Virus record (IMG/VR): IMGVR_UViG_3300009149_000039
Span: 1 to 55,342 of that record
Reading direction: 5' to 3' (one strand)
DNA from: a virus
Taxonomy: Duplodnaviria; Caudoviricetes
DNA length: 55,342 nt
Shown: positions 3,001-52,138 of the stretch, piece by piece
How positions within the stretch are numbered: position 1 is the stretch's first letter
Layout: each line of letters starts with the position of its first letter
Position numbers and translations under genes: made by a program
The notes under the pieces: generated by a model
Told to the model about the DNA's origin: nothing
The model's database searches: none
The model's input: only the letters and a program-made list of their open reading frames with translations

Positions 3001-4282
3001 ATGATCCAGATGTTCCTGAAGTTCCGCTTGAGCCATCTTCACCAGATGTTCCACTTAAACCACTTGAACCACTTGTACCTGAAGAACCAACATCACCTGT
3101 TGCACCGCTTGTACCAGAACTTCCTGATGTTCCATCTTCACCACTTGTTCCGCTTGAACCTGAACTTCCACTATCACCTGTTGCTCCACTTGTACCCGAA
3201 CTTCCTGATGTACCGCTATCGCCACTTGTACCACTACTTCCTGATGTTCCATCTTCACCAGATGTTCCAGATGAACCACTATCACCTATTCCACCACTTG
3301 TACCACTACTTCCTGATGTTCCATCTTCACCGCTTGTACCTGAAGAACCTGCTTCACCAGTTGCTCCTGATGTTCCTGAACTACCATCTTCTCCTGAAGT
3401 ACCTGAAGAACCAGCATCACCACTTGTTCCAGAACTTCCACTATCACCACTTGTTCCAGAACTTCCACTATCACCACTTGTTCCAGAACTTCCACTATCA
3501 CCACTTGTTCCAGAACTTCCACTATCACCAGATGTTCCACTTGTTCCTGATGTACCTGAAGAACCTGCATCGCCTGATGTTCCACTTGTTCCAGATGATC
3601 CATTATTACCGCTTGACCCACTACTTCCAGATGTACCAGATGAACCTGTATCACCAGATGTTCCACTTGTTCCTGATGTTCCAACACCAGAACTACCACT
3701 AGAACCTGATGTTCCTGAAGACCCAGTATCACCAGATGTTCCTGAAGACCCATCAATACCAGATGTTCCTGAAGAACCAGCATCACCTGTTGCACCACTT
3801 GTACCACTACTACCTGATGTACCATTTTCACCAGATGTCCCAGAACTACCACTATCACCTGAACTTCCAGATGTTCCTGAACTACCCGATGTACCTGTAT
3901 CACCTGTTGCTCCGCTTGTACCACTACTTCCAGATGAACCACTTGTTCCACTACTACCTACATCACCATCAATACCACTTGAACCTGAACTTCCACTTGT
4001 ACCAGATGAACCTAATGTTCCATCTTCGCCACTTGTACCAGATGAACCTGATGTTCCTGATGTACCAGAACTACCTCTTAGACCAGATGTACCGCTAGTT
4101 CCCGCAGACCCACTAATTCCAGATGTCCCAGATGTCCCAGAAGACCCATCACCAATAAGTGTTTGAAGTGTTTCTAAAGATACCTGATAAGTAATCCCAC
4201 TAATTACAATAGTGGTTACACCACTTATACTAGGATTTGTATTTAACGGAAGATCGGTTATATTTTTTCCACATTTAGACAT
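2..4282 (-). CDS. Giant Gly-X-Y (GTS/GSS) Ser/Thr-rich repeat fibre protein, 3' end outside window (>1427 aa)
   Basis: ATG at 4282; reads MSKCGKNITDLPLNTNPSISGVTTIVISGITYQVSLETLQTLIGDGSSGTSGTSG..., then Gly at essentially every third residue to the window edge; absent from ORF track because no stop lies in the window. Confidence 0.9.
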   Translation of the reverse strand, partial: MSKCGKNITDLPLNTNPSISGVTTIVISGITYQVSLETLQTLIGDGSSGTSGTSGISGSAGTSGTSGLRGSSGTSGTSGSSGTSGEDGTLGSSGTSGSSGSSGIDGDVGSSGTSGSSGSSGTSGATGDTGTSGSSGTSGSSGDSGSSGTSGENGTSGSSGTSGATGDAGSSGTSGIDGSSGTSGDTGSSGTSGSSGSSGVGTSGTSGTSGDTGSSGTSGSSGSSGNNGSSGTSGTSGDAGSSGTSGTSGTSGDSGSSGTSGDSGSSGTSGDSGSSGTSGDSGSSGTSGDAGSSGTSGEDGSSGTSGATGEAGSSGTSGEDGTSGSSGTSGGIGDSGSSGTSGEDGTSGSSGTSGDSGTSGSSGTSGATGDSGSSGSSGTSGEDGTSGSSGTSGATGDVGSSGTSGSSGLSGTSGEDGSSGTSGTSGSSGSSGTSGDSGTSGSSGTSGEQGIEGSSGTSGTSGSSGSSGSDGSSGTSGEDGSSGTSGTSGEDGSSGTSGTSGEDGSSGTSGTSGEDGSSGTSGVDGSSGTSGSSGTSGTSGDDGSSGTSGVDGSSGTSGVDGSSGTSGSSGSSGIDGEDGSSGTSGTSGSDGSSGTSGTSGSSGSSGSDGSSGTSGSSGSGGTSGSSGTSGSSGSGGTSGSSGTSGSSGTSGSSGTSGEDGSSGTSGTSGSNGSSGTSGEQGIEGSSGTSGTSGSSGSSGSSGTSGEDGSSGTSGTSGTSGSSGSSGEQGIEGSSGTSGIDGSSGTSGTSGDDGSSGTSGEDGSSGTSGTSGSSGSSGSDGSSGTSGEQGDAGSSGTSGTSGIDGSSGTSGSSGSSGTSGTSGSSGSSGSSGSSGSSGTSGISGSSGTSGSSGSSGTSGSSGSSGSSGTSGSSGSSGSSGSSGTSGESGSSGTSGTSGSSGSNGSSGTSGSSGSSGSSGTSGTSGSSGSSGTSGSSGTSGSSGTSGSSGNSGSSGSSGTSGSSGTSGEDGSSGSSGTSGTSGSSGSSGSSGTSGSSGEDGSSGTSGTSGSSGSSGTSGSSGSGGSSGSSGTSGIDGSSGTSGSSGTSGSSGTSGEDGSSGTSGSSGSSGSSGNSGTSGTSGSSGSSGTSGSSGSSGSSGTSGSSGSSGTSGTSGSSGTSGTSGSSGTSGIDGSSGTSGTSGSSGNSGSSGTSGEDGSSGTSGTSGTSGTSGSSGSSGSSGSSGTSGSSGSSGTSGIDGSSGTSGSSGSSGSSGTSGTSGSSGSSGTSGLDGSSGTSGSSGSSGSSGSSGSSGSSGTSGSDGSSGTSGSSGSSGSSGSSGTSGTSGSSGTSGTSGSSGSSGSSGTSESSGSSGSSGSSGTSGTSGSSGSSGTSGSSGSSGSSGSSGSSGSSGTSGEDGSSGSSGTSGSSGNSGSSGTSGTSGSSGTSGSSGTSGTSGSSGTSGTSGSSGTSGIGTSGTSGTSGVGTSGT

Positions 4283-6131: not shown

Positions 6132-7112
6132 ATGGACCCAGAAACATACGGTAAAAATACAGATTTAGAATTAATTGCGGAACAACAAAGAAAAGCACAT
6201 ATTGTTAAAAACACATATACAGATGATAACAGTTATGGGGTAACAAATGCAAATGCGATATCAGACGGTGATGAAAAAGGAAAAGGTGAAGGGAAAGACG
6301 GAGTAGTTGGTTCAAGTATCGATATACAAACAAGAATAGCAAACACAATAAAAAATTTATATAACGAAAATTTCGGGTATGGTGTTACCAACCCTAACGC
6401 CATATCAGATGGTGATGAAAAAGGTAAGGGAGAAGCAGGTGATAATGGTAGTGTAGGTTCAAAAACAGATATAAACGAAAGAATACAATTAGTTGCAAGA
6501 AATATTTATAATGAAAATTTCGGGTACGGAGTTACTAATCCAAATGCGATATCAGACGGTGATGAAAAAGGTAAGGGAGAAAATGATGGTAAGATAGGAT
6601 CGGTAACTGATATTAACGAAAGAACACAATTATTAGCAAGAAATACATATGATGAAAATTTCGAATATGATACAACAAACCCTAACGCGATATCAGACGG
6701 TGACGATAAAGGAAAAGGTGAAGGTGAAACAGGTAGTGTAGGGTCAAAAACAGACATAAATGAAAGAACACAATTAGTCGCAAGAAATATCTACGATGAT
6801 AATTTTGGGTATGATGTAACTAACCCTAACGCAATATCTGATGGTGACGAAAAAGGGAAAGGTGAAGGACCAAGTGGAACAATAGGTTCACAAACAGATA
6901 TTAATAGAAGAATAGATAGTGTAGCGAGGAATATATATAATGAATTTTTCGCATATGATGTTACTAATCCTAATGCAATATCAGATGGTGATGAAAAAGG
7001 AAAAGGTGAAGGTGAGGATGGTAGAATCGGGTCAAGAACCGATATTAACGAAAGAATTGTTTCAACAGCAAGAAATGATTATGGTGAACATAATAGATAC
7101 CCTGATTTTTAA
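6132..7112 (+). CDS. Tandem-repeat protein (six ~48-49-aa repeats)
   Basis: Repeat YGVTNPNAISDGDEKGKGE..GSKTDINER...ARNIY seen six times. Confidence 0.85.
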   Translation: MDPETYGKNTDLELIAEQQRKAHIVKNTYTDDNSYGVTNANAISDGDEKGKGEGKDGVVGSSIDIQTRIANTIKNLYNENFGYGVTNPNAISDGDEKGKGEAGDNGSVGSKTDINERIQLVARNIYNENFGYGVTNPNAISDGDEKGKGENDGKIGSVTDINERTQLLARNTYDENFEYDTTNPNAISDGDDKGKGEGETGSVGSKTDINERTQLVARNIYDDNFGYDVTNPNAISDGDEKGKGEGPSGTIGSQTDINRRIDSVARNIYNEFFAYDVTNPNAISDGDEKGKGEGEDGRIGSRTDINERIVSTARNDYGEHNRYPDF

Positions 7113-7963
7113 TGACTGAGTTATATACCATATCAAATATTTTATTATTGGAACAGGACAGTAAAATGATGGATTTAAGAAAAGCCATTATTGAACGAAA
7201 ACCAATTTCAATACAATATTCAGGACCACCTGAAGAAGTTTTATCTGGGCCAAGGTATGATATTGAACCAATTGTTATGGGGACAAATGCAAAAAGCGGT
7301 AATCTCGTTATTTGGGCATATGTTTTTAGAGGTGTATCAAAAAAAGGAATACCTGGGTGGAAAATGTTTAGAGTTGATAGAATTCAAAGTATAGATGCTG
7401 ATAGTTTTAATAAAGATTCATTTAAATTAGAAGATTTACCGGGATATCAACAAGGAAAAGCACCAAATGCGATGAAATCCCTAAGTCGTGTTGATATATA
7501 TTCACCATATTGGTTTGAAGGATATAAAAAGAATCAAAAGAAACCATATCAACCAGCACCGCCAGCTCCTGAACCAAAAGAAGTTCCGACAACAGAACCG
7601 ACAACAGCACCGACAGAAGTACCGACAAGTCCTGATTTATTTTCACATAAACTTGATATAATAGCTTTTAATAAATTAAAAGCAAAAGTACAAGATGTTG
7701 ATGGTCAAAAAACGGTAACTAATCAAGAATATCAAGACACATTGAATAATTTATATAAAGACAAAGAAGGTGAATGGAAAAGATATCAATCGATGGTATC
7801 AGGTAATGTAAGACCTGGGGAGGGAACAAGAAATCGATTTAAAACATATGGAAAAAAAGAAATCGATGATTTATTATCACAGAACGGTATTACTGTTTCA
7901 AATGAAGTAAACAATATGGTTGCTGAGATACAAAAAAGATTTAAAGACTTGATTTTTTCATAA
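7112..7963 (+). CDS. WYL-domain protein
   Basis: N-terminal ISIQYSG...RYDIEPIVMG...WKMFRVDRI matches WYL pattern; Pro/Thr linker. Confidence 0.7.
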   Translation: MTELYTISNILLLEQDSKMMDLRKAIIERKPISIQYSGPPEEVLSGPRYDIEPIVMGTNAKSGNLVIWAYVFRGVSKKGIPGWKMFRVDRIQSIDADSFNKDSFKLEDLPGYQQGKAPNAMKSLSRVDIYSPYWFEGYKKNQKKPYQPAPPAPEPKEVPTTEPTTAPTEVPTSPDLFSHKLDIIAFNKLKAKVQDVDGQKTVTNQEYQDTLNNLYKDKEGEWKRYQSMVSGNVRPGEGTRNRFKTYGKKEIDDLLSQNGITVSNEVNNMVAEIQKRFKDLIFS

Positions 7964-7983
7964 ACAAAAAATATATTTAACAT

Positions 7984-8613
7984 ATGACAATGAAACTAAA
8001 CAACGGACCAATATCTCAAGACGATTTAATGTTACGTCTAGCAAATGCTAAGAAAGTAATGGAAAAAGTAGATGATGGTAATTACCATAAAGGGAATATT
8101 AACGAAGCCCCTATTGTTAATGATGATGAAGCATATGCAATAGCTGACCAATTAAGAACAGATGATGAAACAGTACCACTAAAGGATGTAGGGACTGTTA
8201 ATATTAGTAAAATGCAAGAAGAAAAAATTAATCAATCAAATTTACCTGAACATATAAAACAAGCGATGATAAATAACCCTACACAATTATCGTTAAATGA
8301 TTCATTAGATATGAATTTTGTTGAAAGAACAAAAAAAATAATGGAGCAACAAGGTGTAAGTACAAAAAAAACGAATAACACACAACCAAGAACGAATAAT
8401 CCACCACAATCATTAAATAGTAATGATATAGTATCCCAACTAACACCGATAATTGAAAATATTGTATTAAAAACGATGAACGACATTTTCGATAAAAAAT
8501 TGGATTTAATTTTAAATGCTCAAAAAACATCAACAATTAATGAAAATTTAGTATTAAAGGTTGGTGAATCTATTTTTAGTGGTAAAATTACAGGTGTAAA
8601 AAAAAGTAAGTAA
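7984..8613 (+). CDS. Hypothetical protein
   Basis: 209-aa ORF. Confidence 0.7.
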   Translation: MTMKLNNGPISQDDLMLRLANAKKVMEKVDDGNYHKGNINEAPIVNDDEAYAIADQLRTDDETVPLKDVGTVNISKMQEEKINQSNLPEHIKQAMINNPTQLSLNDSLDMNFVERTKKIMEQQGVSTKKTNNTQPRTNNPPQSLNSNDIVSQLTPIIENIVLKTMNDIFDKKLDLILNAQKTSTINENLVLKVGESIFSGKITGVKKSK

Positions 8614-42571: not shown

Positions 42572-44578
42572 ATGAGCGGAGTAGAATTTTTTGATAGTCC
42601 AGAAAAACAAGGGCAGAAAGGTAAGAAGACAAATTCAAAAACACCTATATTAGACAACTTTTCACGAGATTTAACAAGATTAGCGAAAGAAGGGTTATTA
42701 GACCCCGTAATAGGTAGGGAAAAAGAAGTAACAAGAATATCACAAATATTATCACGAAAGAAAAAAAATAATGTGGTTATTGTTGGTGAGCCAGGAACAG
42801 GAAAAACAGCATTAGTCGAAAAATTAGCACAACAAATAGAGCAAGGAGATTGTCCAACACCATTATTAGATAAAAGGATTGTCGCACTTGATTTAACATC
42901 ATTAGTTGCAGGAACGAAATATCGTGGACAATTCGAAGAAAGAATTAAAGCAATTATAAATGAATTAACAGACACATCCGATGTGATAATTTTTATTGAT
43001 GAATTACATACAATGGTTGGAGCAGGAAACGCTACAGGCTCAATGGATGCTGCAAATATATTAAAGCCCGCATTAGCACGAGGTGAAATACAATGTATAG
43101 GTTCTACCACATTTGATGATTTTAAAAAACATATAGAAAAAGATGGTGCATTAGTAAGAAGATTCCAAAAGCTTATTTTAAAAGAACCAACAAAAGATGA
43201 AACAATTGAAATTTTAAATACCTTAAAATCAACATATGAAGATTATCATAAGGTGTATTATGAACCAAATGTAATAGAAACAATTGTTATGTTATCTGGT
43301 AGATATATTACGGATAGACAATTCCCTGATAAAGCAATTGATGTTTTAGATGAATTAGGTTCGGAGAAAAAAATATCAGGTAAAATCCCCGCTAATATAG
43401 AAGGTATTAAAGATAAAATAAATAAAATAAAACAAGATAAGACTAAAGTAGTTAAAAACCAAGATTACGAAAAAGCAGCAAAACTAAGGGACGAAGAACA
43501 AGATTTATTAAAAAAATTAGACAAAGAAAAAAAAGTATGGGAAAATAAGCAAAAGAATAACAAGATGCCTATATCAGTTGAAGATGTATATTCAATAGTA
43601 TCCGAATCAACAGGTGTCCCTATACATAAATTAGACACCAAGGAATCAAGTAATTTATTAAATTTAGAAGCTAGTTTATCAACAAAAATAATTGGTCAAG
43701 ATGAAGCCATATCAACGATATCTAAAGCCATTAGAAGAAACCGTGTTGGTATAAAAGATAGTAATAAACCTATTGGGTCATTTATGTTTTTAGGATCAAC
43801 CGGTGTCGGTAAAACTTATTTAGCGAAATGTCTTGCCGAAGAGTTGTTTGGTGACCCAGATAAAATTATCCGTATTGATATGAGTGAATATATGGAAAAA
43901 TTCGCAGTTTCAAGATTGGTAGGTGCACCCCCTGGATATGTTGGGTATGATGAAGGTGGTCAACTTACAGAATTAATTAAAAATAATCCATTCTCGGTCA
44001 TTCTTTTTGATGAAATAGAAAAGGCACATAAAGATATATTTAACATATTCTTACAAATTCTTGATGAAGGTAGGATAACGGATTCATTTGGTAGAACTGT
44101 TAACTTCACTAATACCTTGATTATTATGACATCCAACATCGGGTCTAAAAGAGTATCAGAATTTGGTGCTGGAATTGGTTATTCCGCAGGTAAAAACAAA
44201 GACAATAATAAAAAAGAAATTATCCAAAGGGAACTAAAAAAACATTTTACACCTGAATTTCTTAATAGGGTTGATGACACCATAATATTTAATGGATTAA
44301 CAGATGATGTATTTAAAAAAATTATAACCATCGAATTGTCAAAACTTAATAATAGAATAAAGGAAAAAAACTATAACCTAACTTTTGATACATCAGTATC
44401 AGATAGAATATTTGAACTTAATTCTGAAGAAGATTACGGAGCAAGACCAATAAAACGAATTATTCAGAATTTAGTTGAAGACTTTTTAAGTGAAGAAATA
44501 CTAAAAGGTAAATTAAAAGAAAATGTCCAACAAATAATGAGATATAAGAATAATAAACTAACAATAACCAAAAAATAG
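42572..44578 (+). CDS. clpC: ClpC-like AAA+ ATPase lacking N-terminal domain
   Basis: Two Walker A motifs (GEPGTGKT, GSTGVGKT), RGQFEER, UVR motif QDYEKAAKLRD, GAPPGYVG, IGY loop. Confidence 0.9.
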   Translation: MSGVEFFDSPEKQGQKGKKTNSKTPILDNFSRDLTRLAKEGLLDPVIGREKEVTRISQILSRKKKNNVVIVGEPGTGKTALVEKLAQQIEQGDCPTPLLDKRIVALDLTSLVAGTKYRGQFEERIKAIINELTDTSDVIIFIDELHTMVGAGNATGSMDAANILKPALARGEIQCIGSTTFDDFKKHIEKDGALVRRFQKLILKEPTKDETIEILNTLKSTYEDYHKVYYEPNVIETIVMLSGRYITDRQFPDKAIDVLDELGSEKKISGKIPANIEGIKDKINKIKQDKTKVVKNQDYEKAAKLRDEEQDLLKKLDKEKKVWENKQKNNKMPISVEDVYSIVSESTGVPIHKLDTKESSNLLNLEASLSTKIIGQDEAISTISKAIRRNRVGIKDSNKPIGSFMFLGSTGVGKTYLAKCLAEELFGDPDKIIRIDMSEYMEKFAVSRLVGAPPGYVGYDEGGQLTELIKNNPFSVILFDEIEKAHKDIFNIFLQILDEGRITDSFGRTVNFTNTLIIMTSNIGSKRVSEFGAGIGYSAGKNKDNNKKEIIQRELKKHFTPEFLNRVDDTIIFNGLTDDVFKKIITIELSKLNNRIKEKNYNLTFDTSVSDRIFELNSEEDYGARPIKRIIQNLVEDFLSEEILKGKLKENVQQIMRYKNNKLTITKK

Positions 44579-44679
44579 TTTAGATATTAATATCTTTTCC
44601 CTAAATATTTTATATTTATATACACTAACAAATTTTATTTTTTTCCTCTTTTATAGTAAAAATAAAATATAATATGGCT

Positions 44680-44709
44680 AAACCCGCAACATATGTTGTG
44701 GGTTTTTTT
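44680..44709 (+). terminator. Intrinsic terminator downstream of clp
   Basis: aaacccgcaac-atat-gttgtgggttttttt. Confidence 0.7.
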
Positions 44710-44754
44710 ATCGCTTATTTTGAATTGTCAATTATTTTTAATATATTTACTAAT

Positions 44755-45099
44755 ATGGGAACACAATCAAAGATAATAACAGATGTAGATGATGTCAAAA
44801 CATTTCTAACAATAGACGCGAATAAATCATATTCTGATTTCCAAACTTTTTATCAAGAAAATAAAGATACTATATATAAAGGTATAATATCATTATATGA
44901 ACAATTTGGTAGAACTAAAAATCAAAATTTGAAAATAGTTGTTAAATCTATAATTGTTGATTACAAATGGGACGCAAATTTAATATTTGAAAAAAGTGAC
45001 ACAAAAGCTCTTATGACATTCATATTACCATATTATGAAAATAATGAAGAATTTGAAACATGTGCTCATATTATGAAAATATACAAAAAATTACAATAG
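44755..45099 (+). CDS. Hypothetical protein
   Basis: Probable start MGTQSK (the longer track start lies in the terminator). Confidence 0.6.
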   Translation: MGTQSKIITDVDDVKTFLTIDANKSYSDFQTFYQENKDTIYKGIISLYEQFGRTKNQNLKIVVKSIIVDYKWDANLIFEKSDTKALMTFILPYYENNEEFETCAHIMKIYKKLQ

Positions 45100-45537
45100 T
45101 TCACTTGAACTATCCCCAATATTACTGTCAGTAGCACTTTCCTTAGCAGAATCACTTGAATTAAATTGATACCCTTCATACTCGGTTTCATAATACGATT
45201 CACCATAACCACCACCATAACCACCGCCACCATAACCACCACGATAACCACTACCCCTTGATGAGAATTTATCGACAGAATCAGCCCCCATACCAATGGC
45301 GGTTATAATCATTACCGCATCAACAAGAAAATCGGCTGGAATGAAATTAGGATAAAAACTATTTGCTAACATCGCACCACATAAAAATACTGAACCAACA
45401 AAAGCAATAACGGGTTTTATTGATGTTTCACCCCTTTCATCCTCAAATAAATTAATTATCCAGGTTTTAAATGTAACATTGTCGTTTTCCGTTCCACGCA
45501 CGACATATCTTTGTCTTTGTTTAACTGTGCTTTCCAT
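45091..45537 (-). CDS. Two-TM membrane protein with Gly-Tyr-rich tail (holin-like?)
   Basis: Two hydrophobic helices, GGYGGGGYGGGYG; TATTTATA upstream. Confidence 0.6.
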   Translation of the reverse strand: MESTVKQRQRYVVRGTENDNVTFKTWIINLFEDERGETSIKPVIAFVGSVFLCGAMLANSFYPNFIPADFLVDAVMIITAIGMGADSVDKFSSRGSGYRGGYGGGGYGGGYGESYYETEYEGYQFNSSDSAKESATDSNIGDSSSELL

Positions 45538-45711
45538 AAAATCACTTTTTATTATAAATATTTCGTTGTTAATTTACATATTTTTAATGAAATAGTGTAT
45601 AGATATGGGGAAAATTTTATAGTAACTTTCCCGTAAACCCACTTTTTTATTGTTAGGGATTACACAAGAAACGGTTATTAATAAAAAAAAACAAACTTTT
45701 TTTCGTTTTTT

Positions 45712-45743
45712 CTTGGCAGTTATAATATTTATACGTATATTTG
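45712..45743 (+). promoter_or_regulatory. Bacteroidota-type promoter of tRNA array 1
   Basis: CTTG 45712-45715, N20, TATATTTG 45736-45743. Confidence 0.7.
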
Positions 45744-45777
45744 CAAAAGTTATTTAAAAAAGATAAAATAAAATTCA

Positions 45778-45879
45778 ATGAGACCAACAGTACATATAGA
45801 AATTTCGATGGCGTGTTCAAAGTGGACAGATGAGCGTGATTTTGCCCTGTGCCGAGGTTTTGAAAAAGAATTTATATGA
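45778..45879 (+). CDS. Leader peptide 1 (putative attenuator uORF), MRPTVHIEISMACSKWTDERDFALCRGFEKEFI
   Basis: 33 codons between promoter and terminator; contains the antiterminator strand ccgaggttttga. Confidence 0.7.
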   Translation: MRPTVHIEISMACSKWTDERDFALCRGFEKEFI

Positions 45880-45904
45880 TAATATAAAAATTCGCATATT
45901 AGTC

Positions 45905-45938
45905 AAAACCTCGGAACAAAATTCCGGGGTTTTTTTTT
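45905..45938 (+). terminator. Attenuator terminator 1
   Basis: aaaacctcggaa-caaaa-ttccggggtttt plus U-run, located upstream of the first tRNA. Confidence 0.85.
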
Positions 45939-45953
45939 GTTCTTTAAAATAAT

Positions 45954-46027
45954 GGGACCATAGCTGAGCCCGGTTTTAGCACTGCTTTTGCAAGGCAGGG
46001 ACGGGGGTTCGAATCCCCCTGGCTCCA
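45954..46027 (+). tRNA. tRNA-Ala(TGC)
   Basis: ctgct-ttTGCaa-ggcag; G3:U70; GTTCGAATC. Confidence 0.85.
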
Positions 46028-46158
46028 CAAAATAGGTAAATAGATAATATCTACCAAAGAATTATCAGATTACCGTGAGTTGTTAGGTACTTTTGTAAAG
46101 TTAACTTAACAAAAATGTCCAACAACTTACAAAGCGATCTTTGACATCTTGGTCTTTT

Positions 46159-46236
46159 CGGTAAGTATCCCCCCTGCCTGATACGCAGGAGCGAGGTAAC
46201 TGGTTGAAAATGTGGGTTCGAATCCCACCTTACCGA
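46159..46236 (+). tRNA. Atypical tRNA-Ile(GAT)-like, no D arm, long variable region
   Basis: cggtaag/cttaccg acceptor, cctgc-ctGATac-gcagg, gtggg-ttcgaat-cccac. Confidence 0.55.
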
Positions 46237-46326
46237 CATATGGTGATGTAGCTCAGTAGACTGAAAAAAAATATTAGATTTCAGTTTTTATATGTTTTTT
46301 TAGTATTTATATATAAAATATATATT

Positions 46327-46752
46327 ATGAAAATATGTACAAAATGTAAGAATGAAAAAAACGAAAGTGAATTTTTTTTTAAGAATAAACAAAAAGGTAT
46401 TTTACATTCTAATTGTAAAGATTGTAAACGTGAAATAGATAGACGAAGTTATCACGAAAACAGAAATAATAGAAAAGATAAAATTAGAAAACGTTCTTAT
46501 GATGAAGTAAAAAGAGTTAGAGAATATTATATAGAATATAAGAAAAAACAAAAATGTAATAATTGTGGTGATGATAGATGGTATGTTTTAGATTTTCATC
46601 ATATTGAAAATAAGAAACACACAATAAGTTTTTTAGGAAAGAGGGGGAATATGAAAAAATTAAAAAAAGAACTTACTAAATGTGTACCTTTATGTGCGAA
46701 TTGTCATAGAGAATTACATTATTTAGAACATAACGGAGTGTTGGCAGATTAG
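46327..46752 (+). CDS. HNH homing endonuclease
   Basis: CTKC..CKDC zinc ribbon; LDFHH...KCVPLCANCHRELH. Confidence 0.85.
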   Translation: MKICTKCKNEKNESEFFFKNKQKGILHSNCKDCKREIDRRSYHENRNNRKDKIRKRSYDEVKRVREYYIEYKKKQKCNNCGDDRWYVLDFHHIENKKHTISFLGKRGNMKKLKKELTKCVPLCANCHRELHYLEHNGVLAD

Positions 46753-46807
46753 GTAATTGCGTTGGTCTGAAAAACCAAAGGAACTGGCTCGATACCAGTA
46801 CACTCCA
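46735..46807 (+). tRNA. tRNA-Phe(GAA)
   Basis: ttggt-ctGAAaa-accaa; ggagtgt/acactcc. Confidence 0.8.
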
Positions 46808-46812
46808 CAAAT

Positions 46813-46888
46813 AATTCCGTAGCTCAGTTGGTAGAGCATTAGATTTTTAATCTAAGGGTCGTGGGATCGTGCCCCACCGGGATTACCA
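46813..46888 (+). tRNA. tRNA-Lys(TTT)
   Basis: ttaga-ttTTTaa-tctaa; encoded ACCA. Confidence 0.85.
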
Positions 46889-46891
46889 AAT

Positions 46892-46973
46892 GCACCCGTG
46901 ACCGAGCGGAGCGAAAGCGTCAGGCACCACTCTTTTAAAGTGGGTTACATAGGTTCGAATCCTATCGGGTGCA
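46892..46973 (+). tRNA. tRNA-Lys(TTT) with D-loop insertion
   Basis: ccact-ctTTTaa-agtgg; gcacccg/cgggtgc. Confidence 0.75.
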
Positions 46974-47037
46974 CATTATAATCGGAAGGTTATAATCATA
47001 TATAAAGAGTAAGATGCATATGAAATTTATATATGTT

Positions 47038-47110
47038 AGCGGTAAGGTGTTGTGGGCGAGCATCCCCCCGTGCGAGGGGGTGGCTGTAGGTTCAAATCCT
47101 GCTACCGCTG
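47038..47110 (+). tRNA. tRNA-like, ambiguous anticodon (GCG or TGC)
   Basis: agcggta/taccgct acceptor, T arm gtagg-ttcaaat-cctgc; loop cgtgcga. Confidence 0.5.
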
Positions 47111-47240
47111 CAAAAATAGTTACTAGGTTAGCATATAATCGTATAATACCCGTTTATATGCTACTGGGGTAACATAAGATATTATAATCGGAAGGTTATA
47201 ATCAACATCAAATAATAATTGTACAATAAAATTGATGTTG

Positions 47241-47313
47241 TACGATGTGGGGGAGGGGTTACCTCGCCGCCAGCGAAAGGGCGGAGGCACAAGTTCGAAT
47301 CTTGTCATCGTAA
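47241..47313 (+). tRNA. tRNA-like with 8-nt non-canonical anticodon loop
   Basis: tacgatg/catcgta; ccgcc-agcgaaag-ggcgg; acaag-ttcgaat-cttgt. Confidence 0.5.
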
Positions 47314-47504
47314 CTATTCGAACACGAAGTGAAAACTGATATAAAAGTTTAATCTAAAGTGTACGGAAAATTTAATTATAACAATAGCAAAGGCGAAAAA
47401 AACCGTGAGCAGAGGAAGGGTCTGACAGGTAATTAAATTGGAACTACATAAGTAAATTAAATGAGTAATTGATGTTAGTAGTTAAGTTAGTAGACATATC
47501 GTTT

Positions 47505-47588
47505 GCACTTGTAGTTCAATGGGTAGAACATGGGAACGCATTTGCTATTCTTAATCCCAAGATATGAGTTCGAATCTCATCTGGTGAA
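47505..47588 (+). tRNA. tRNA-like with 19-nt anticodon loop
   Basis: Normal D and T arms; tggga-N19-tccca; weak acceptor stem. Confidence 0.45.
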
Positions 47589-47609
47589 TAACAAACGATA
47601 TGAATTTTC

Positions 47610-47681
47610 GTCTTCGTAGTGTAACCAGGTTAGCACGCAACCCTGTCACGGTTGTAGAGGGGTTCGAATCCCACGGGGACG
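47610..47681 (+). tRNA. tRNA-Asp(GTC)
   Basis: caacc-ctGTCac-ggttg. Confidence 0.8.
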
Positions 47682-47711
47682 GCTTTATTAAAAATAGAAT
47701 AATATAACATC

Positions 47712-47781
47712 CCTCCAGTAGTTCAATGGTAGAATATCTGATTGTGGTTCAGAAGATCAGGGTTCGAGTCCCGCTGGTTGA
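47712..47781 (+). tRNA. tRNA-His(GTG), weak acceptor stem
   Basis: tctga-ttGTGgt-tcaga. Confidence 0.6.
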
Positions 47782-47915
47782 CAAATGTGATTAGTGAGTC
47801 GGGGTATGAAGACACGCCCAGCAGAAACGCAAGCAAACGAAAGCAACTGATTAGTGTTTATCAGTATTTTTAAATTATACCTTTAAAAAAGAATAAAAAT
47901 TTAAACTTTAATAAA

Positions 47916-48170
47916 ATGGAATACATTAAAAAAGAAGACATTAAAGTCGGTTGGTATATCGGTTTTTGTCGCAACGCAAATTTAGCATTTTGGGATGGAA
48001 AAGAATTTATGCATATTAGAAATAAGTTCTTTTATAGATGGGATACCATAGAGCATTTCGATGATGTAAAAGAAAAAAAATTAGATGGTTTTGTCCCATT
48101 AAAAAAATTGGAATATGAAGAACCAGACTATAAAGTAATTGAAAAAGTAAAACAAGAAATAGGTTATTAA
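47916..48170 (+). CDS. Hypothetical protein
   Basis: 84-aa ORF within tRNA array. Confidence 0.65.
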   Translation: MEYIKKEDIKVGWYIGFCRNANLAFWDGKEFMHIRNKFFYRWDTIEHFDDVKEKKLDGFVPLKKLEYEEPDYKVIEKVKQEIGY

Positions 48171-48213
48171 GCTGACAAAAATTTAAAAAAGTAAACATAT
48201 AAGCTGACAAAAC

Positions 48214-48286
48214 GCTCCTGTCGTCTAATGGTTCAGGATAGAGGACCTTCAATCCCCAGATGCGAGTTCGATTCTCGTCAGGAGTA
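48214..48286 (+). tRNA. tRNA-Glu(TTC)
   Basis: Glu-type D arm tcgtctaatggttcaggat; loop ccTTCaa. Confidence 0.75.
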
Positions 48287-48304
48287 CAAAGAATTTTTTA
48301 TTAT

Positions 48305-48374
48305 TGCGGGGAGCTCTGGGTAAGCCACGACTCTCATAAGGTCGGAAAGAATAGTTCGATTCTATTCCCCGCAA
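48305..48374 (+). tRNA. tRNA-Met(CAT)
   Basis: cgact-ctCATaa-ggtcg; short D arm. Confidence 0.65.
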
Positions 48375-48383
48375 CATAATTTT

Positions 48384-48457
48384 GGGCCTGTAGCTCAGTT
48401 GGTCAGAGCAGCACACTCATAATGTGAAGGTCGTTGGTTCGAACCCATCCTGGCCCA
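48384..48457 (+). tRNA. tRNA-Ile2/Met(CAT)
   Basis: gggcctg acceptor, canonical D arm, caca-ctCATaa-tgtg. Confidence 0.8.
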
Positions 48458-48582
48458 CAATTTTTAAAATCCCCCGAGGGGGGGTCGGGGAAATAAAATT
48501 AGGAAACAGTTGTTTTTATTAATGTTTTATGTTATATTATGTCGTAAAAGTAGTAAACATTGTCGACAAAAAAGAAAAAAAT

Positions 48583-49017
48583 ATGAAAAAATTATTATGG
48601 TTAGACGATTTTAGGGACCCATTTGATGAAAAATCAAATTGGTTAGCATATAACTCAATACGAATAGAAAAACCATTCGAAATAATATGGGTTAAAAATT
48701 ATGATGAATTTATAGATTGGATAATTAAAAATGGATTACCATACCAAATAAGTTTTGACCACGATTTGGCGGATGAACATTATAGTCCTGATATGTATAA
48801 AACACCAGATGTATATAATAAACATTATGATGATTTTAGAGAAAAAACAGGTATGGATTGTGCAAAATGGTTAATAAGTTATTGTATAAACAATAATGTA
48901 AGTGTTCCTAAATTTACTGTACATAGTGCGAATCCCGTTGGTGGTGAAAATATTCGAGCACTACTTAGTAACTTTATCCGGCATCATCCGGTAATAAATA
49001 ATAAAAATTCTTGTTGA
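48583..49017 (+). CDS. Cyclic-phosphate-processing receiver-domain protein
   Basis: LWLDDFR, ISFDHDL, TGMDCAKWL, VHSANPVG; probable start MKKLLW. Confidence 0.75.
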   Translation: MKKLLWLDDFRDPFDEKSNWLAYNSIRIEKPFEIIWVKNYDEFIDWIIKNGLPYQISFDHDLADEHYSPDMYKTPDVYNKHYDDFREKTGMDCAKWLISYCINNNVSVPKFTVHSANPVGGENIRALLSNFIRHHPVINNKNSC

Positions 49018-49144
49018 TAATCAACCGATTATAAGTTTATCCGGTAATATCTGGCAAAAAGTGTCCATGCAAATGGTATTTTTTATCCATTTTAGGGTAG
49101 CTTGGACATAATGTCCAAGCAAATGTCCAAGCTAACAAAATATA

Positions 49145-49384
49145 TTGAAATTTCTATCGCTCCACGGAGAGGAAATTCGGGACATCATCGCTTAAGGTAG
49201 AAGATAATATCATTAAAAATGCACGATATCATTTATTATGATATTAAGCAAAAATTGTGATATTATCGTTTGTACTACCGAGGATGCAACACAAAACAGT
49301 TTAGAGGGTGAGCGACTCTATTATAACGAGGTAGTGGCAAGTAGATAAATGATAGAATAATACAGAATCCCGGTTATATTTCAA
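49145..49384 (+). ncRNA. rnpB: RNase P RNA, minimal (~240 nt)
   Basis: GAGGAAATTCGGGA and ACAGAATCCCGGTTA (P4 signature), AGATAAATGAT, P1 ttgaaat/atttcaa, P2 ttctatc/gatagaa. Confidence 0.85.
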
Positions 49385-49393
49385 TTTTAATAC

Positions 49394-49465
49394 AGGTGTA
49401 TAGTTCAACGGCTAGAATAATGGTCTCCAAAACCATAGATGGGGGTTCGAATCCCTCTACTCCTG
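49394..49465 (+). tRNA. tRNA-Trp(CCA)
   Basis: atggt-ctCCAaa-accat. Confidence 0.85.
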
Positions 49466-49477
49466 CAAAAAATAAAT

Positions 49478-49549
49478 GGCCTTATAGTTCAATGGATAGA
49501 ACACAACACTACGGATGTTAAGATGAGAGTTCGAGTCTTTCTAGGGTCA
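49478..49549 (+). tRNA. tRNA-Arg(ACG)
   Basis: aaca-ctACGga-tgtt. Confidence 0.85.
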
Positions 49550-49557
49550 CTATATAT

Positions 49558-49635
49558 TGGGATTTTGGGTAGGGACAGTATCATGAACTGTTTTGGGTAG
49601 CACCCCCCGTTGAAGTTCGATTCTTCTAATCCCAA
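49558..49635 (+). tRNA. Atypical tRNA-like (CAT), reduced D arm, long variable arm
   Basis: tgggatt/aatccca; cagt-atCATga-actg; gaag-ttcgatt-cttc. Confidence 0.4.
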
Positions 49636-49741
49636 CAGTTAATCGGAATAATTCCGATTATGTGGTTCTTATATCGCAACTTAGTAGTAAAGGTGATATT
49701 AAGATCAAAGATGGGGGAAAACTAATGAAACCCCCATACCA

Positions 49742-49813
49742 GGTCCTGTGTCCGATTGGCTAAGGTGGCGGACTGCAAATCCGTTTATATGAGTTCGAAT
49801 CTCATCGGGACCT
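49742..49813 (+). tRNA. tRNA-Cys(GCA)
   Basis: gcgga-ctGCAaa-tccgt; U73. Confidence 0.9.
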
Positions 49814-49819
49814 CAATAT

Positions 49820-49893
49820 GGTGATTGTAGCTGAATTGGTAAAGCACCTGACTGTGAATCAGAAGATTGTCGGTTCGACCCCGATCTTTCACC
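49820..49893 (+). tRNA. tRNA-His(GTG)
   Basis: G-1, C73, ctga-ctGTGaa-tcag. Confidence 0.85.
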
Positions 49894-49901
49894 CAAATAA
49901 T

Positions 49902-49989
49902 ACACTCGCTCATTTGGCGTGACCTGCGGGCTCCAACCCCGTTCTTTTGAGTAGCAATATAGGTGAGGGTTCGAATCCCTACGAGTGTG
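49902..49989 (+). tRNA. Atypical tRNA-Trp(CCA) with long variable region
   Basis: acactcg/cgagtgt; gcggg-ctCCAac-cccgt; aggg-ttcgaat-ccct. Confidence 0.5.
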
Positions 49990-50078
49990 CAACATAACAT
50001 AGGGTGTAAACTTGTGGAGAAGCAAGTCTTCGGAAAATACGTACCGTTGAAGCATTTGATTCTGATGCAGCCCTAAAT

Positions 50079-50225: not shown

Positions 50226-51095
50226 ATGTTAAAAATTGATGAAGGTTTTGATGAAATAATTAAATGTAATTATGAATTATATTCTGTAAAATTATTTGAA
50301 TTAAAAGAATTAGCAAAATCTTGGTATAAAGATATTAATTTTAATGATTTTGATAATAGATTTATTGGTGATAACGATTCGAATAAACTAATTCAAATGA
50401 AAAAAACCGGTATTTTATGTAATTACTTTTTTGCGTATAAAGAAGATAATATTTATCATCTTCTTGATGGGTTTAATCGGTTATTTACTGATTATGGTCA
50501 TATTAATGTTGACACAACTGTTTATTTGAAAGTTTTAGTAGGGGAGTTAAAAGATAATCACTTAATGTCTATTATGTTTATGCTTAATACTTGGAAATTA
50601 CAAACACAAGGAGTTCATTCATTTAGAATTACGAATTTTTTAGATAGGGGGTTTAGATTATTTTTATATAGTAAATTTGATATAAAACTATATGATTACA
50701 CTAACATTGATTATTACGATAGAATAAGAAACGATAAAGATATAGATGTTTTAGAAAAATATTTTATACGTGAAAGAGAATATAGTGATATGTTTAAATA
50801 TGAATTAGATGATTTAGCTATTCTTTTTTACAATAAAAACATAATAAATGATTTTAAAGAAATAATAAAATCAAATGATTATTTAACTGAACCTTTTAAC
50901 AATTATAATAAATTTCTTTATGGATTTATAATGTGGATATCACATAAAAGAATAAAAGGAGATAATTCTGAATATAAATTTCAAACATATTTAAATAAAT
51001 TATATCAGGATAAAAAATTCTTTAAAAAATTACAAGGAATGTCAGGAACAGACAGCACTAGAAAAAATATTTATAAATTCTTTCGTAATTTATAA
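50226..51095 (+). CDS. Hypothetical protein (ParB-like LLDGFNR motif)
   Basis: 289-aa ORF with its own TATATTTG promoter at 50193-50200. Confidence 0.65.
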   Translation: MLKIDEGFDEIIKCNYELYSVKLFELKELAKSWYKDINFNDFDNRFIGDNDSNKLIQMKKTGILCNYFFAYKEDNIYHLLDGFNRLFTDYGHINVDTTVYLKVLVGELKDNHLMSIMFMLNTWKLQTQGVHSFRITNFLDRGFRLFLYSKFDIKLYDYTNIDYYDRIRNDKDIDVLEKYFIREREYSDMFKYELDDLAILFYNKNIINDFKEIIKSNDYLTEPFNNYNKFLYGFIMWISHKRIKGDNSEYKFQTYLNKLYQDKKFFKKLQGMSGTDSTRKNIYKFFRNL

Positions 51096-51132
51096 AAATT
51101 ATGTATATTTGCAAAGTTCTTTAAAATAAAAA

Positions 51133-51201
51133 GCGGGAATAGCTCAGAGAAAGAGCTGGAGGTCACCTCTGTAAGCGAAGGTTCAAGTCCTTCTTCCCGC
51201 T
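51133..51201 (+). tRNA. tRNA-Gly-like body with aberrant anticodon arm centred on TCA
   Basis: gcgggaa/ttcccgc, U73; gagg-TCA-cctc; promoter TATATTTG at 51104-51111. Confidence 0.5.
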
Positions 51202-51206
51202 CACAT

Positions 51207-51297
51207 CGCGGGATGGAGCAGTCAGGTCAGCTCGCTAGGCTCATAACCTAGATTCGGTATCAATCCGCTTGCGAGGGTTCAAATCCCTCTCCCGCAA
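51207..51297 (+). tRNA. Initiator-like tRNA-fMet(CAT) with long variable arm
   Basis: C1:A72 mismatch, ggagcag..gctcg D arm, ctagg-ctCATaa-cctag. Confidence 0.75.
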
Positions 51298-51386
51298 CAA
51301 AATAAATTGGTATTATTTATATATATTTATATAAGTAATTGTAAAATTAAGGGGTATTTATACCATTATTTATATTTACTTATATT

Positions 51387-51578
51387 ATGTGGGAGTATTA
51401 CAAAACACTTATTTTATATGAAGACCATAAAGATTTAACTGACCAGTTAAATAAATTGGGTAGTGACAATTGGGAGATTATATATTATAAGGAGCTTCCA
51501 AAACAACAATTTGCATTACGTTCCCAAGTTGAAATTTTATTAAAAAGACCGAATATCATTGATTTAAGTGATAATTGA
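51387..51578 (+). CDS. DUF4177-like small protein
   Basis: MWEYYK...LNKLGSDNWEII...LLKRP. Confidence 0.6.
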   Translation: MWEYYKTLILYEDHKDLTDQLNKLGSDNWEIIYYKELPKQQFALRSQVEILLKRPNIIDLSDN

Positions 51579-51610
51579 AAATATCATTGATTTAAGTGAT
51601 ATTATAATAT

Positions 51611-51696
51611 GGAAGGCACCCGGCCGGATGAGGAGCTTGTCTTGAAAACAGGTAGCGGTTTAAAACCCGTTTGGGGTTCGAGTCCCTAGCCTTCCG
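51611..51696 (+). tRNA. tRNA-Ser(TGA)
   Basis: cttgt-ctTGAaa-acagg; long V arm; G73. Confidence 0.85.
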
Positions 51697-51736
51697 CAAG
51701 AAAAATGAAAATAAATGAAAAAAATATTAAAAAAAG

Positions 51737-51767
51737 TTTGGTAATTCAAAAAGTTTTTGTATATTTG
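51737..51767 (+). promoter_or_regulatory. Bacteroidota-type promoter of tRNA array 2
   Basis: TTTG 51737-51740, N19, TATATTTG 51760-51767. Confidence 0.8.
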
Positions 51768-51785
51768 CAATAATTATTAATAGAG

Positions 51786-51884
51786 ATGAAAAATTTATCG
51801 TACATACAGCCGAGTTCATATAGACCATATAATGGTACAGGAACAGTTACGCTTTTAAATGATGCGATAGGTTCGGATTCTTGA
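51786..51884 (+). CDS. Leader peptide 2 (putative attenuator uORF), MKNLSYIQPSSYRPYNGTGTVTLLNDAIGSDS
   Basis: 32 codons between promoter and terminator; same layout as leader 1. Confidence 0.7.
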   Translation: MKNLSYIQPSSYRPYNGTGTVTLLNDAIGSDS

Positions 51885-51910
51885 CAATAGAAATTATAGA
51901 AATTTTAATT

Positions 51911-51947
51911 AAAAGACCCGGACTTAAAAAAAAGTTCGGGTTTTTTT
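51911..51947 (+). terminator. Attenuator terminator 2
   Basis: aaaagacccggactt-aaaaaa-aagttcgggttttttt. Confidence 0.85.
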
Positions 51948-52138
51948 GTTTCTATTAGATAATAAAATAATAAGGCAACAACCTTATAATGATACACTAT
52001 AAGGCAACAACCTTATGATAAGGGTTCTTTGACATACTGTGAAAAAAAAAATAATAACACAATAGGTGGAATAATTTATGCCAAAATTTTATTTCACCAT
52101 ACGGTCCTGTGGCGGACGTTGGAATACGCAACAGACTT

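Follow-up and report, generated by a model that had tools for sequence, protein, structure and literature searches.

Leader-peptide attenuation is represented in enterobacteria by trpL, hisL, pheL and leuL, and by the multivalent leaders thrL and ilvL, which sense more than one amino acid. To our knowledge, little has been established on how phages control their transfer RNA (tRNA) genes, and leader-peptide attenuation is not known for tRNA operons; a literature search, the coverage of which did not extend to subscription journals, found no published leader-peptide attenuation of tRNA genes. Leader-peptide transcription attenuators have been described in general terms (PMC1183508). We analysed a candidate element of this type, attenuator 1, in the complete IMG/VR virus record IMGVR_UViG_3300009149_000039 (Duplodnaviria; Caudoviricetes), the 55,342 bases of which are called the window. 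The element contains a short open reading frame (ORF), the leader, and lies in front of the first gene of a tRNA array. With a probability of roughly three in four, it is a trp-style, ribosome-mediated leader-peptide attenuator that gates the phage tRNA operon and senses the decoding of the operon's own tRNAs; the phage probably transcribes these tRNAs only when ribosomes decode slowly.

The element resembles the attenuators of amino-acid operons in having a leader ORF with regulatory codons and its own start in the 5′-leader, the translation of which is predicted, an intrinsic terminator between this ORF and the regulated genes, and an antiterminator that excludes the terminator and could be covered by a ribosome (in the relatives, it is weaker than the terminator at equilibrium). 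As proposed here for the phage, the place of the ribosome decides whether the antiterminator forms, and slow decoding leads to read-through. In contrast to the amino-acid operons, the genes regulated would be tRNA genes and not those of biosynthetic enzymes, and the leader lists one to three codons for about 10-14 tRNAs instead of a run of one codon, i.e. its codons are cognate to the products of the operon, with a single one or a few per tRNA. Further differences are that the antiterminator strand lies within the ORF, that no conserved protector or pause hairpin (1:2) was found, and that the element, unlike the enterobacterial ones, is phage-borne, with a host that is probably a member of the Bacteroidota.

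T-box riboswitches, which regulate genes for synthetases and amino acids, need no translation: uncharged tRNA is bound directly by an architecture of specifier loop, T-box sequence and stem I. They share with the phage element the choice between terminator and antiterminator in a 5′-leader in response to the state of tRNA, the sensing of which is proposed for the phage. A T-box was considered as the identity of the element and rejected; only the tRNA families of Rfam matched the window at the gathering score. The closest published general stalling sensor is the upstream ORF (uORF) of mycobacterial whiB7 (wblC), at which stalling leads to antitermination (PMC10274678). Expression of whiB7 is activated by depletion of amino-acid biosynthesis enzymes, tRNAs and tRNA synthetases, and the uORF's coding sequence sets which starvation is sensed (PMC10274678). 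Unlike the phage element, whiB7 controls a transcription factor for a stress and resistance regulon, and its alanine-enriched uORF is not a roll-call of what the controlled genes produce. The closest case of an inducible tRNA array is the long tRNA operon (trn) of Anabaena PCC 7120, which is cryptic and induced under translational stress (PMC8421152, PMC10272220). As proposed for the phage, an accessory tRNA array is silent and is switched on when translation is impaired, but trn is cellular and is repressed by a protein, TrcR of the RHH family (PMC10272220). The strings “attenuat”, “leader peptide” and “terminator” occur 0 times in PMC8421152.

The core of attenuator 1 is a perfect complement of 12 nt between ccgaggttttga (45852-45863) and tcaaaacctcgg (45903-45914). 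It was found exactly where a preliminary description of this DNA, made from the letters alone, had placed it, i.e. within codons 25-29 of the ORF at 45778-45879, and it extends to an inverted repeat of 16 nt with 94% complementarity (45848-45863 and 45903-45918). The downstream strand is the 5′ arm of the terminator, which had been noted as 45905-45938 and consists of a hairpin (45905-45933, 12 pairs or 92%, five of them G-C, with a loop of 5 nt) and a tail of nine T (T9). Both helices use 45905-45916 and are therefore mutually exclusive, as the preliminary description had stated. The best duplex between the 3′ part of the leader and the 5′ arm of the terminator has −21.8 kcal/mol (z = −8.4), a value reached by 0 of 200 dinucleotide shuffles of the leader segment. 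The free RNA of 45840-45945 folds as the antiterminator, with −28.1 kcal/mol (z = −3.5; again 0 of 200 shuffles).

To predict the switch point, the window RNA was folded with a mask for the ribosome that extends from −12 to +15 relative to the P site. When codon 5, 10, 16, 18 or 20 occupies the P site, the antiterminator has 12-15 pairs and the terminator none, while with the P site at codons 22, 24, 27, 30 or the stop codon, the terminator has 12 pairs and the antiterminator none. The minimum free energy (MFE) structure thus flips from antiterminator to terminator between codons 20 and 22. These constrained folds support the earlier proposal that an early stall would leave the antiterminator strand free and that translation through it would let the terminator form. 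Untranslated RNA of the window is predicted to adopt the antiterminator.

Upstream of the antiterminator, the leader is composed of codons for which tRNAs are encoded downstream. The preliminary description had observed that the first ~26 codons are nearly all different (23 of 26 are distinct) and that they include unusual G/C-ending codons. The latter are indeed minor ones, with synonymous shares of 0.07 for TCG, 0.18 for GCG, 0.14 for AAG and 0.11 for GAG in the 15 long ORFs of the window (the share of CGT is 0.15). The reason for the diversity, which that description lacked, is that the codons are those of the downstream tRNAs. Most codons of the sense window, i.e. codons 2-20, belong to boxes read by tRNAs of the block that follows the leader. 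In one relative, L095, leader 1 reads MKRTSHTMSITICSKWAEVADF, and block 1 encodes tRNAs for Ala, Phe, Lys, Val, Trp, Arg(ACG), Cys, His, Ile(GAU), Met, Thr, Asp, Ser(UGA) and Glu.

Another attenuator with this layout, attenuator 2, precedes a second tRNA block in the window and in relatives, so that the two leaders and two blocks of one genome could be compared. Each codon of the sense windows was assigned to its decoding box, and the counts include the codons whose tRNA is confined to one of the blocks (Table 1). Four genomes (L103, L146, L161 and L095) give little or no information, as they have a truncated block 2 or sense window: block 2 is cut by the end of the locus in L146, L103 and L161 (and by the end of the record in the window), and the sense window of leader 2 of L095 was set too short for this comparison. 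The threshold of aragorn had been relaxed (-ps90) because the tRNA-Ala after the terminator was missed at some loci, and the tRNA sets may thus contain false calls, e.g. Leu(tag) in L095 and L146.

Table 1. Codons in the sense windows of the two leaders, assigned to the tRNA block that holds the cognate tRNA
Genome	Leader 1, block 1	Leader 1, block 2	Leader 2, block 1	Leader 2, block 2	p
L113	18	0	1	20	3e-10
L129	18	0	1	18	1e-9
L138	19	0	3	17	3e-8
L128	15	1	2	19	2e-7
L094	15	0	2	14	5e-7
L118	13	5	0	22	7e-7
L139	14	3	1	17	4e-6
Window	12	3	4	10	0.009
12 genomes pooled	195	14	26	149	

The match extends to the choice between codon boxes of the same amino acid. For Ile, the ratio of ATH to ATA is 37 : 3 in leader 1 (26 distinct copies) and 0 : 20 in leader 2 (12 distinct copies), compared with a background of 336 : 217 in the long ORFs of the window. 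For Arg past codon 3, CGN and AGR occur 19 : 0 in leader 1, 0 : 12 in leader 2 and 68 : 194 in the background, and for Ser, TCN and AGY occur 53 : 2 and 8 : 11 in leaders 1 and 2, respectively. Both AGY codons of leader 1 are found in L129, the only genome with a tRNA-Ser(GCU) in block 1. This split of the boxes explains the “unusual” G/C-ending codons of leader 1, and it cannot be explained by a function of the peptide.

Leader and operon also vary together between genomes. In L113, Gln is in block 1 and Thr and Val are in block 2; leader 1 of this genome contains Gln and neither Thr nor Val, and leader 2 lacks Gln and contains Thr and Val. In L129, block 2 holds Asp and Glu, and leader 1 (CSKWASQR) has neither, whereas leader 2 has both. 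When leaders were permuted among genomes, the observed agreement was reached in 137 of 10000 permutations for leader 1 (12 genomes) and in 84 of 10000 for leader 2 (six genomes). In leader 2, Asp, Glu, Gln and Thr track the content of the operon in 6/6 genomes.

Attenuator 2 is conserved, with 12 distinct leaders and the consensus MxNLVYIQQPSNNPLSGNGRGIYL. The tRNAs that follow it are Leu(UAA), Arg(UCU), Pro, Asn, Leu(UAG), Tyr, Ile(UAU) or CAU, Gly, Gln and Ser(GCU). More distant phages, the ClpB-like protein of which is 55-70% identical, have a third family of leaders that is unrelated to the others; it was found only via the ClpB-like gene and was missed by the pattern described below. This family obeys the same rule. 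In L042, the leader MKKLLDTLHILLAADLLWADED is followed by tRNAs for Asp, Glu, Leu (four), Ala (two) and Trp, and 16 of 21 sense residues belong to the set of the operon, compared with a background of 0.29 (p = 1e-5). The respective values are 15/21 for L043 (p = 3e-5), 20/22 for L048 (p = 3e-5) and 15/22 for L060, the operon of which is cut by the end of the locus; the value for L049, 5/22 with four visible tRNAs, is not significant. Val occurs in leaders of this family only where the block has a Val tRNA, and the antiterminator pairs GTCGGGT with ACCCGAC. As a separate observation, leader families 1 and 3 both close the sense window with W-A-D-E-(R/D) (45823-45837 in the window; also in L042, L043, L048, L049 and L060), suggesting either shared descent or a preferred ending.

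To obtain relatives, 98 loci were fetched through two neighbouring genes, and nhmmer with the 254-nt region of the window found the element at six distinct places, at each of which the order of promoter, small ORF, terminator and immediate tRNA is kept. In addition, a degenerate pattern (ORF start plus the codons for Cys-Ser-Lys-Trp) was scanned over IMG/VR. It yielded 62 stretches, 35 with the whole element and two with part of it; the others are presumably chance matches. After removal of duplicates, 26 distinct elements remained, including that of the window, with a mean column identity of 58%. Start, frame and stop of the ORF are intact in 26/26. The peptides follow M[KR][QR]F[TK]H[TI]MSF[TI]ICSKWA[DE][EV][RA] and end in a variable tail; without the positions fixed by the pattern, pairs of peptides have an identity of 0.51 ahead of the Trp, 0.49 over the next four residues (to W+4) and 0.22 beyond. 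This drop coincides with the predicted switch boundary. Neither Pfam nor PHROGs has a family for the peptide of leader 1 or leader 2, and the best match, DUF3663 with E = 0.25, is far below the cut-off.

The terminator hairpin and its T run are present in 26/26 elements, with −14.0 to −18.7 kcal/mol. In the alignment, 99.7% of the cells of the terminator are paired and three pairs are compensatory (17 cells); paired fraction and covariation score are reached by 0 of 500 shuffles, and controls slid along the alignment have at most 68.9%. The complement to the terminator arm begins 24-28 nt past the first base of the Trp codon in 24/26 elements, and it exceeds all but at most five of 200 shuffles in 22/26, the exceptions being L139, L155, L106 and L123. 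The solutions vary, i.e. TCCCGAGG/CCTCGGGA, GTCTCGG/CTGAGAC, GTTCCGAG/CTCGGAAC and TCGGGGT/ACCCCGA, and duplexes with the own arm are 5.7 kcal/mol better than those with arms of the other types, a mean reached by 0 of 5000 permutations. The arms fall into only four types, so that few of the switches are independent. In the preliminary description, a lack of conservation in relatives had been named as one of the outcomes that would refute the switch; the complementarity is instead kept and covaries.

Equilibrium folding of full-length leaders with ribosome masks was rejected for the relatives, as their MFE structure is always the terminator. Co-transcriptional snapshots, i.e. transcripts ending before region 4 (the 3′ arm of the terminator), were used instead, without L103 for attenuator 1 and L094 for attenuator 2, the helices of which were mis-called. 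The helix between regions 2 and 3, i.e. the antiterminator, is the MFE structure at ≥75% of the P sites in the sense window in 21/25 cases for attenuator 1 and in 10/11 for attenuator 2. It is open for at least five consecutive codons past the sense window in 25/25 and 11/11 cases, respectively.

The following mechanism is proposed. Transcription would begin at a Bacteroidota-type promoter about 30 nt 5′ of the 33-codon ORF, and codons 2-20 would act as a roll-call of the codons for the downstream tRNAs. If a charged tRNA is scarce, its codon would be read slowly, and the ribosome would wait upstream of 45848. Region 2 (45848-45863) would then pair with region 3 (45903-45918), no terminator would form, and the polymerase would enter the tRNA-Ala gene and the array. 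With fast decoding, region 2 would be covered during the emergence of regions 3 and 4, and transcription would end at the terminator formed (45905-45933 plus T9). A leader that is not translated would give read-through. Attenuator 2 (51760-51947) would act likewise on the second block, with a complementary set of codons. The position of the ribosome would thus set termination, the supply of tRNAs would be the signal, and the net effect would be a negative feedback from decoding speed to tRNA transcription.

Several other explanations were weighed against this one. The attenuator could sense the general speed of translation, as influenced by stress, ribosome supply or amino-acid starvation, and the match between leader and tRNAs could be a by-product. 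One to three codons per tRNA, compared with the runs of the regulatory codon in classical leaders, would suit such a sensor, some leader codons have their tRNAs in the other block, and a general stalling sensor has been published in the whiB7 uORF, the composition of which sets what is sensed (PMC10274678). We nevertheless consider it unlikely, because sensing of the general speed would not lead one to expect two leaders with complementary codons per genome (p down to 3e-10), the split of the Ile, Arg and Ser boxes, the change of the leader when a tRNA gene moves between blocks, or an unrelated Leu/Ala/Asp/Glu/Trp leader in front of exactly those tRNAs. It appears very improbable that the leader is an arrest peptide like those of erm, cat or TnaC, the nascent chain of which would stall the ribosome upon sensing a small molecule or a factor, independently of the tRNA supply. 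It would account for a conserved N-terminal part that ends where the stall is needed, as in drug-sensing leaders, and for the W-A-D-E common to families 1 and 3. However, all that the three unrelated leader families have in common is that the downstream tRNAs correspond to their residues, and residues are gained or lost with tRNA genes, e.g. in leader 1 of L129 and of L113. The codon box is irrelevant to a nascent chain, and that the codon-box choice as well as the residue set track the downstream tRNA genes would argue against a leader of this type. The invariant Trp and the Ser-Lys-Trp motif presumably resemble TnaC, a likeness that was dropped as an explanation.

It is improbable that the ORF encodes a functional small protein with the hairpin as its terminator, so that the tRNAs would be transcribed by read-through or from other promoters and the complement would be non-regulatory. 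The N-terminal 20 residues have a pairwise identity of ~0.5, the level of an ordinary protein, additional promoter-like sites lie within the array, and the terminator is favoured at equilibrium in most relatives. Yet in the C-terminal third, which is variable as a peptide, the RNA retains its complementarity to the terminator arm and covaries with it, the synonymous choice of codon boxes tracks the adjoining tRNA genes, for which a role of the peptide cannot account, no protein family matches in Pfam or PHROGs, and the 15 nt between terminator and first tRNA offer no room for a promoter. Lastly, AT-rich DNA often contains short ORFs and A/T-rich complements, and six terminator-like sites occur in 44000-50000, compared with 3.8 expected from shuffles. 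A chance ORF with a chance complement beside an ordinary terminator is nevertheless hardly conceivable, as the duplex energy was reached by none of the shuffles, both helices covary, and the ORF is intact in all of the 26 distinct sequences, which at their mean column identity are not near-identical copies.

Other observations weigh against an attenuator that senses the operon's own tRNAs. Each tRNA is represented by one to three codons only. Codons 2-3 of leader 1 are often AGA and CAA, the tRNAs of which belong to block 2. L118 and L139 keep three Thr codons in leader 1, and Thr(UGU) was seen only in block 2; a search with Rfam for a missed tRNA-Thr in block 1 of L118, L139 and L123 found none. 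The assignment of ATA is ambiguous where only CAU tRNAs are present. The leader of the window itself is the most divergent one and has the weakest match: its AGA, CCA and ATA codons are assigned to block 2, and the window yielded no tRNA-Thr despite two ACA codons in the sense window of leader 1. The counts over genomes (Table 1) are not phylogenetically independent, and in 19 of the 26 elements, codon 2 and the codons for Cys-Ser-Lys-Trp, five in total, were preset by the search pattern. Part of block 1 may escape control by read-through, since the block holds other promoter-like sites, at 46088, 50193 and 51104. A search of sequencing runs for the stretch returned no RNA run; the only run with the full stretch is a DNA run, possibly the one from which the record derives. 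Termination at T9 and translation of the ORF are predicted.

The RNA structures also include points on this side. The antiterminators of the relatives, with 7-10 bp, are weak, and only the long antiterminator of the window beats the terminator at equilibrium. Full-length RNA of the relatives prefers the terminator in 24/26 cases at any position of the ribosome (one row, L103, is mis-called), and their switch must therefore be kinetic and co-transcriptional. With a single register on the MAFFT alignment, 62.5% or 65.1% of the antiterminator cells are paired. This low value results from the existence of two registers; duplexes for each sequence and the permutation of cognate versus non-cognate arms were used instead. 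For attenuator 2, no covariation signal was obtained (771 of 5000 permutations), because its terminator arm hardly varies. RNAalifold on the 26 sequences gives the terminator only, and thus no conserved 1:2 pause or protector hairpin; a hairpin of the window at 45790-45853 is not conserved in the relatives. The 1:2 pause hairpin, which keeps ribosome and polymerase in step and leads to termination if the leader is not translated, is not universal among leader-peptide attenuators.

If attenuation by decoding of the operon's own tRNAs is correct, decoding speed feeds back directly and negatively onto tRNA transcription, with one short ORF that samples all of the operon's tRNA species. Ribosome-coupled attenuation has rarely been documented in Bacteroidota-type systems that lack Shine-Dalgarno motifs, and the element would be such a case. 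The design gives a rule that can be tested, namely that the codons of a leader match, box by box, the anticodons encoded after it, and it offers a simple way to spot such switches in metagenomes. Phage tRNAs are thought to counter tRNA-targeting antiphage defences (PMC12409363), which links the element to current work on these defences. More tentatively, the attenuators might be damage sensors, i.e. the loss of a host tRNA to a host defence (an anticodon nuclease or another system that depletes tRNAs) or to the shut-off of the host by the phage would stall the ribosome at the respective codon of the leader and switch on the block with the replacement tRNA. The tRNA arrays of giant phages would then be inducible modules for counter-defence and homeostasis that read out each tRNA carried.

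The features of both attenuators are compiled in Table 2. The window is estimated to represent 18% of a genome and is thus a fragment of a phage of ~300 kb. The element sits in a gap of 416 nt between a minus-strand gene (45091-45537) and the first tRNA of the plus-strand array, and promoter, ORF, antiterminator, terminator and tRNA are all within 250 nt. The array comprises 28 aragorn calls in the window; Rfam confirms 23 tRNAs and no other family at the gathering score. A comparison of 45500-46300 with 50,697 phage records by blastn gave zero matches, and tblastn with the neighbouring ClpB-like protein found only relatives of <60% identity, the best being uncultured phages of ~640 kb.

Table 2. 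Features of attenuators 1 and 2 in the window
Feature	Position	Strand	Details
Predicted Bacteroidota-type promoter	45713..45743	+	TTG 45713-45715, 20-nt spacer, −7 element TATATTTG 45736-45743
A-rich 5′ untranslated leader	45748..45777	+	~30 nt, without Shine-Dalgarno motif; from the sequence
Leader ORF of attenuator 1	45778..45879	+	33 codons + TGA, MRPTVHIEISMACSKWTDERDFALCRGFEKEFI; from the list of open reading frames
Sense window	45781..45837	+	Codons 2-20; a ribosome paused here would leave the antiterminator strand uncovered
Region 2, 5′ strand of the antiterminator	45848..45863	+	12 perfect pairs 45852-45863, leader codons 24-29
Small hairpin around the stop codon	45868..45893	+	10 nt, 90%; in the loop of the antiterminator helix; in MFE folds
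Region 3	45903..45918	+	Pairs with region 2, or with region 4 as 5′ arm of the terminator 45905-45916
Region 4	45922..45938	+	3′ arm of the terminator 45922-45933, T9 45930-45938
Putative boxA-like motif	45938..45950	+	TGTTCTTTAAAAT, between terminator and first tRNA; from the sequence
tRNA-Ala(UGC), first gene of block 1	45954..46028	+	aragorn, Rfam; block 1 ends ~51697
Attenuator 2	51760..51947	+	Same build; second tRNA block follows
−7 element of attenuator 2	51760-51767	+	
Leader ORF of attenuator 2	51786-51884	+	MKNLSYIQPSSYRPYNGTGTVTLLNDAIGSDS
Region 2 of attenuator 2	51868-51883	+	
Terminator of attenuator 2 (a T tract in addition)	51913-51944	+	

The arrangement TTG-N20-TATATTTG fits the −33/−7 consensus of Bacteroidetes promoters, TTTG/TANNTTTG with a G at −5 (PMC6847099), so that the transcription start is predicted near 45748. 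A TAxxTTTG element lies upstream of the leader in every relative listed. The region of the 5′-leader is A-rich in 26/26 rows of the alignment, and mRNAs of Bacteroidetes have no Shine-Dalgarno sequences and rely on upstream adenines (PMC6847099). The promoter core GTATATTTGCAA is found again in the window at 51104 and 51760. The copy at 51090-51132 is accompanied by a boxA-like AGTTCTTTAAAAT, without leader ORF or terminator, and lies directly upstream of three tRNAs (51133-51697), which may thus escape attenuator 1. The small hairpin around the stop codon of leader 1 would be melted by a terminating ribosome.

The terminator of attenuator 1 ends 15 nt upstream of tRNA-Ala. In the seven relatives listed, a tRNA also follows directly after the terminator, and its start reads as tRNA-Ala in at least five of them. 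In the window, the boxA-like GGTTCTTTGACAT is the counterpart of TGTTCTTTAAAAT (sites 45938-45950 and 52023-52035) between terminator and first tRNA. In relatives, the motif GTTCTTTGACAT is conserved 3′ of the terminator both in attenuator 2 and in the third leader family, and boxA-like motifs also occur after the terminators of L095, L115, L039, L043 and L048. The likeness of TGTTCTTTAAAAT and GTTCTTTGACAT to the boxA of rrn operons is presumed by us, and the motif is thus putative.

Additional observations concern the tRNA arrays. An ORF for an HNH endonuclease (phrog_2255, E = 1e-31) lies within the array of the window at 46327-46752. Irregular tRNA-like genes are found at 46892-46974, 47241-47314, 47505-47588 and 51133-51202; two have anticodon loops with four-base anticodons according to aragorn (ggca and cgaa), one has an insertion of 12 nt in the anticodon loop, and one is a weak call for Val(cac). 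In L129, a GOLLD RNA (338 bits) and a transfer-messenger RNA (87 bits) are situated just 3′ of tRNA block 1 (6171-6574 and 7779-8171). tRNAs with a CUA anticodon, i.e. of the amber-suppressor type and labelled Pyl by aragorn, are encoded in L048 (19110 and 19338) and L138 (11559), a possible hint at stop-codon reassignment. In L128, the tRNA-Phe after tRNA-Ala is reduced to a 3′ fragment that retains the T arm only (~3484-3528), and the leader keeps two Phe codons; sister sequences that share the leader of L128 carry an intact tRNA-Phe.

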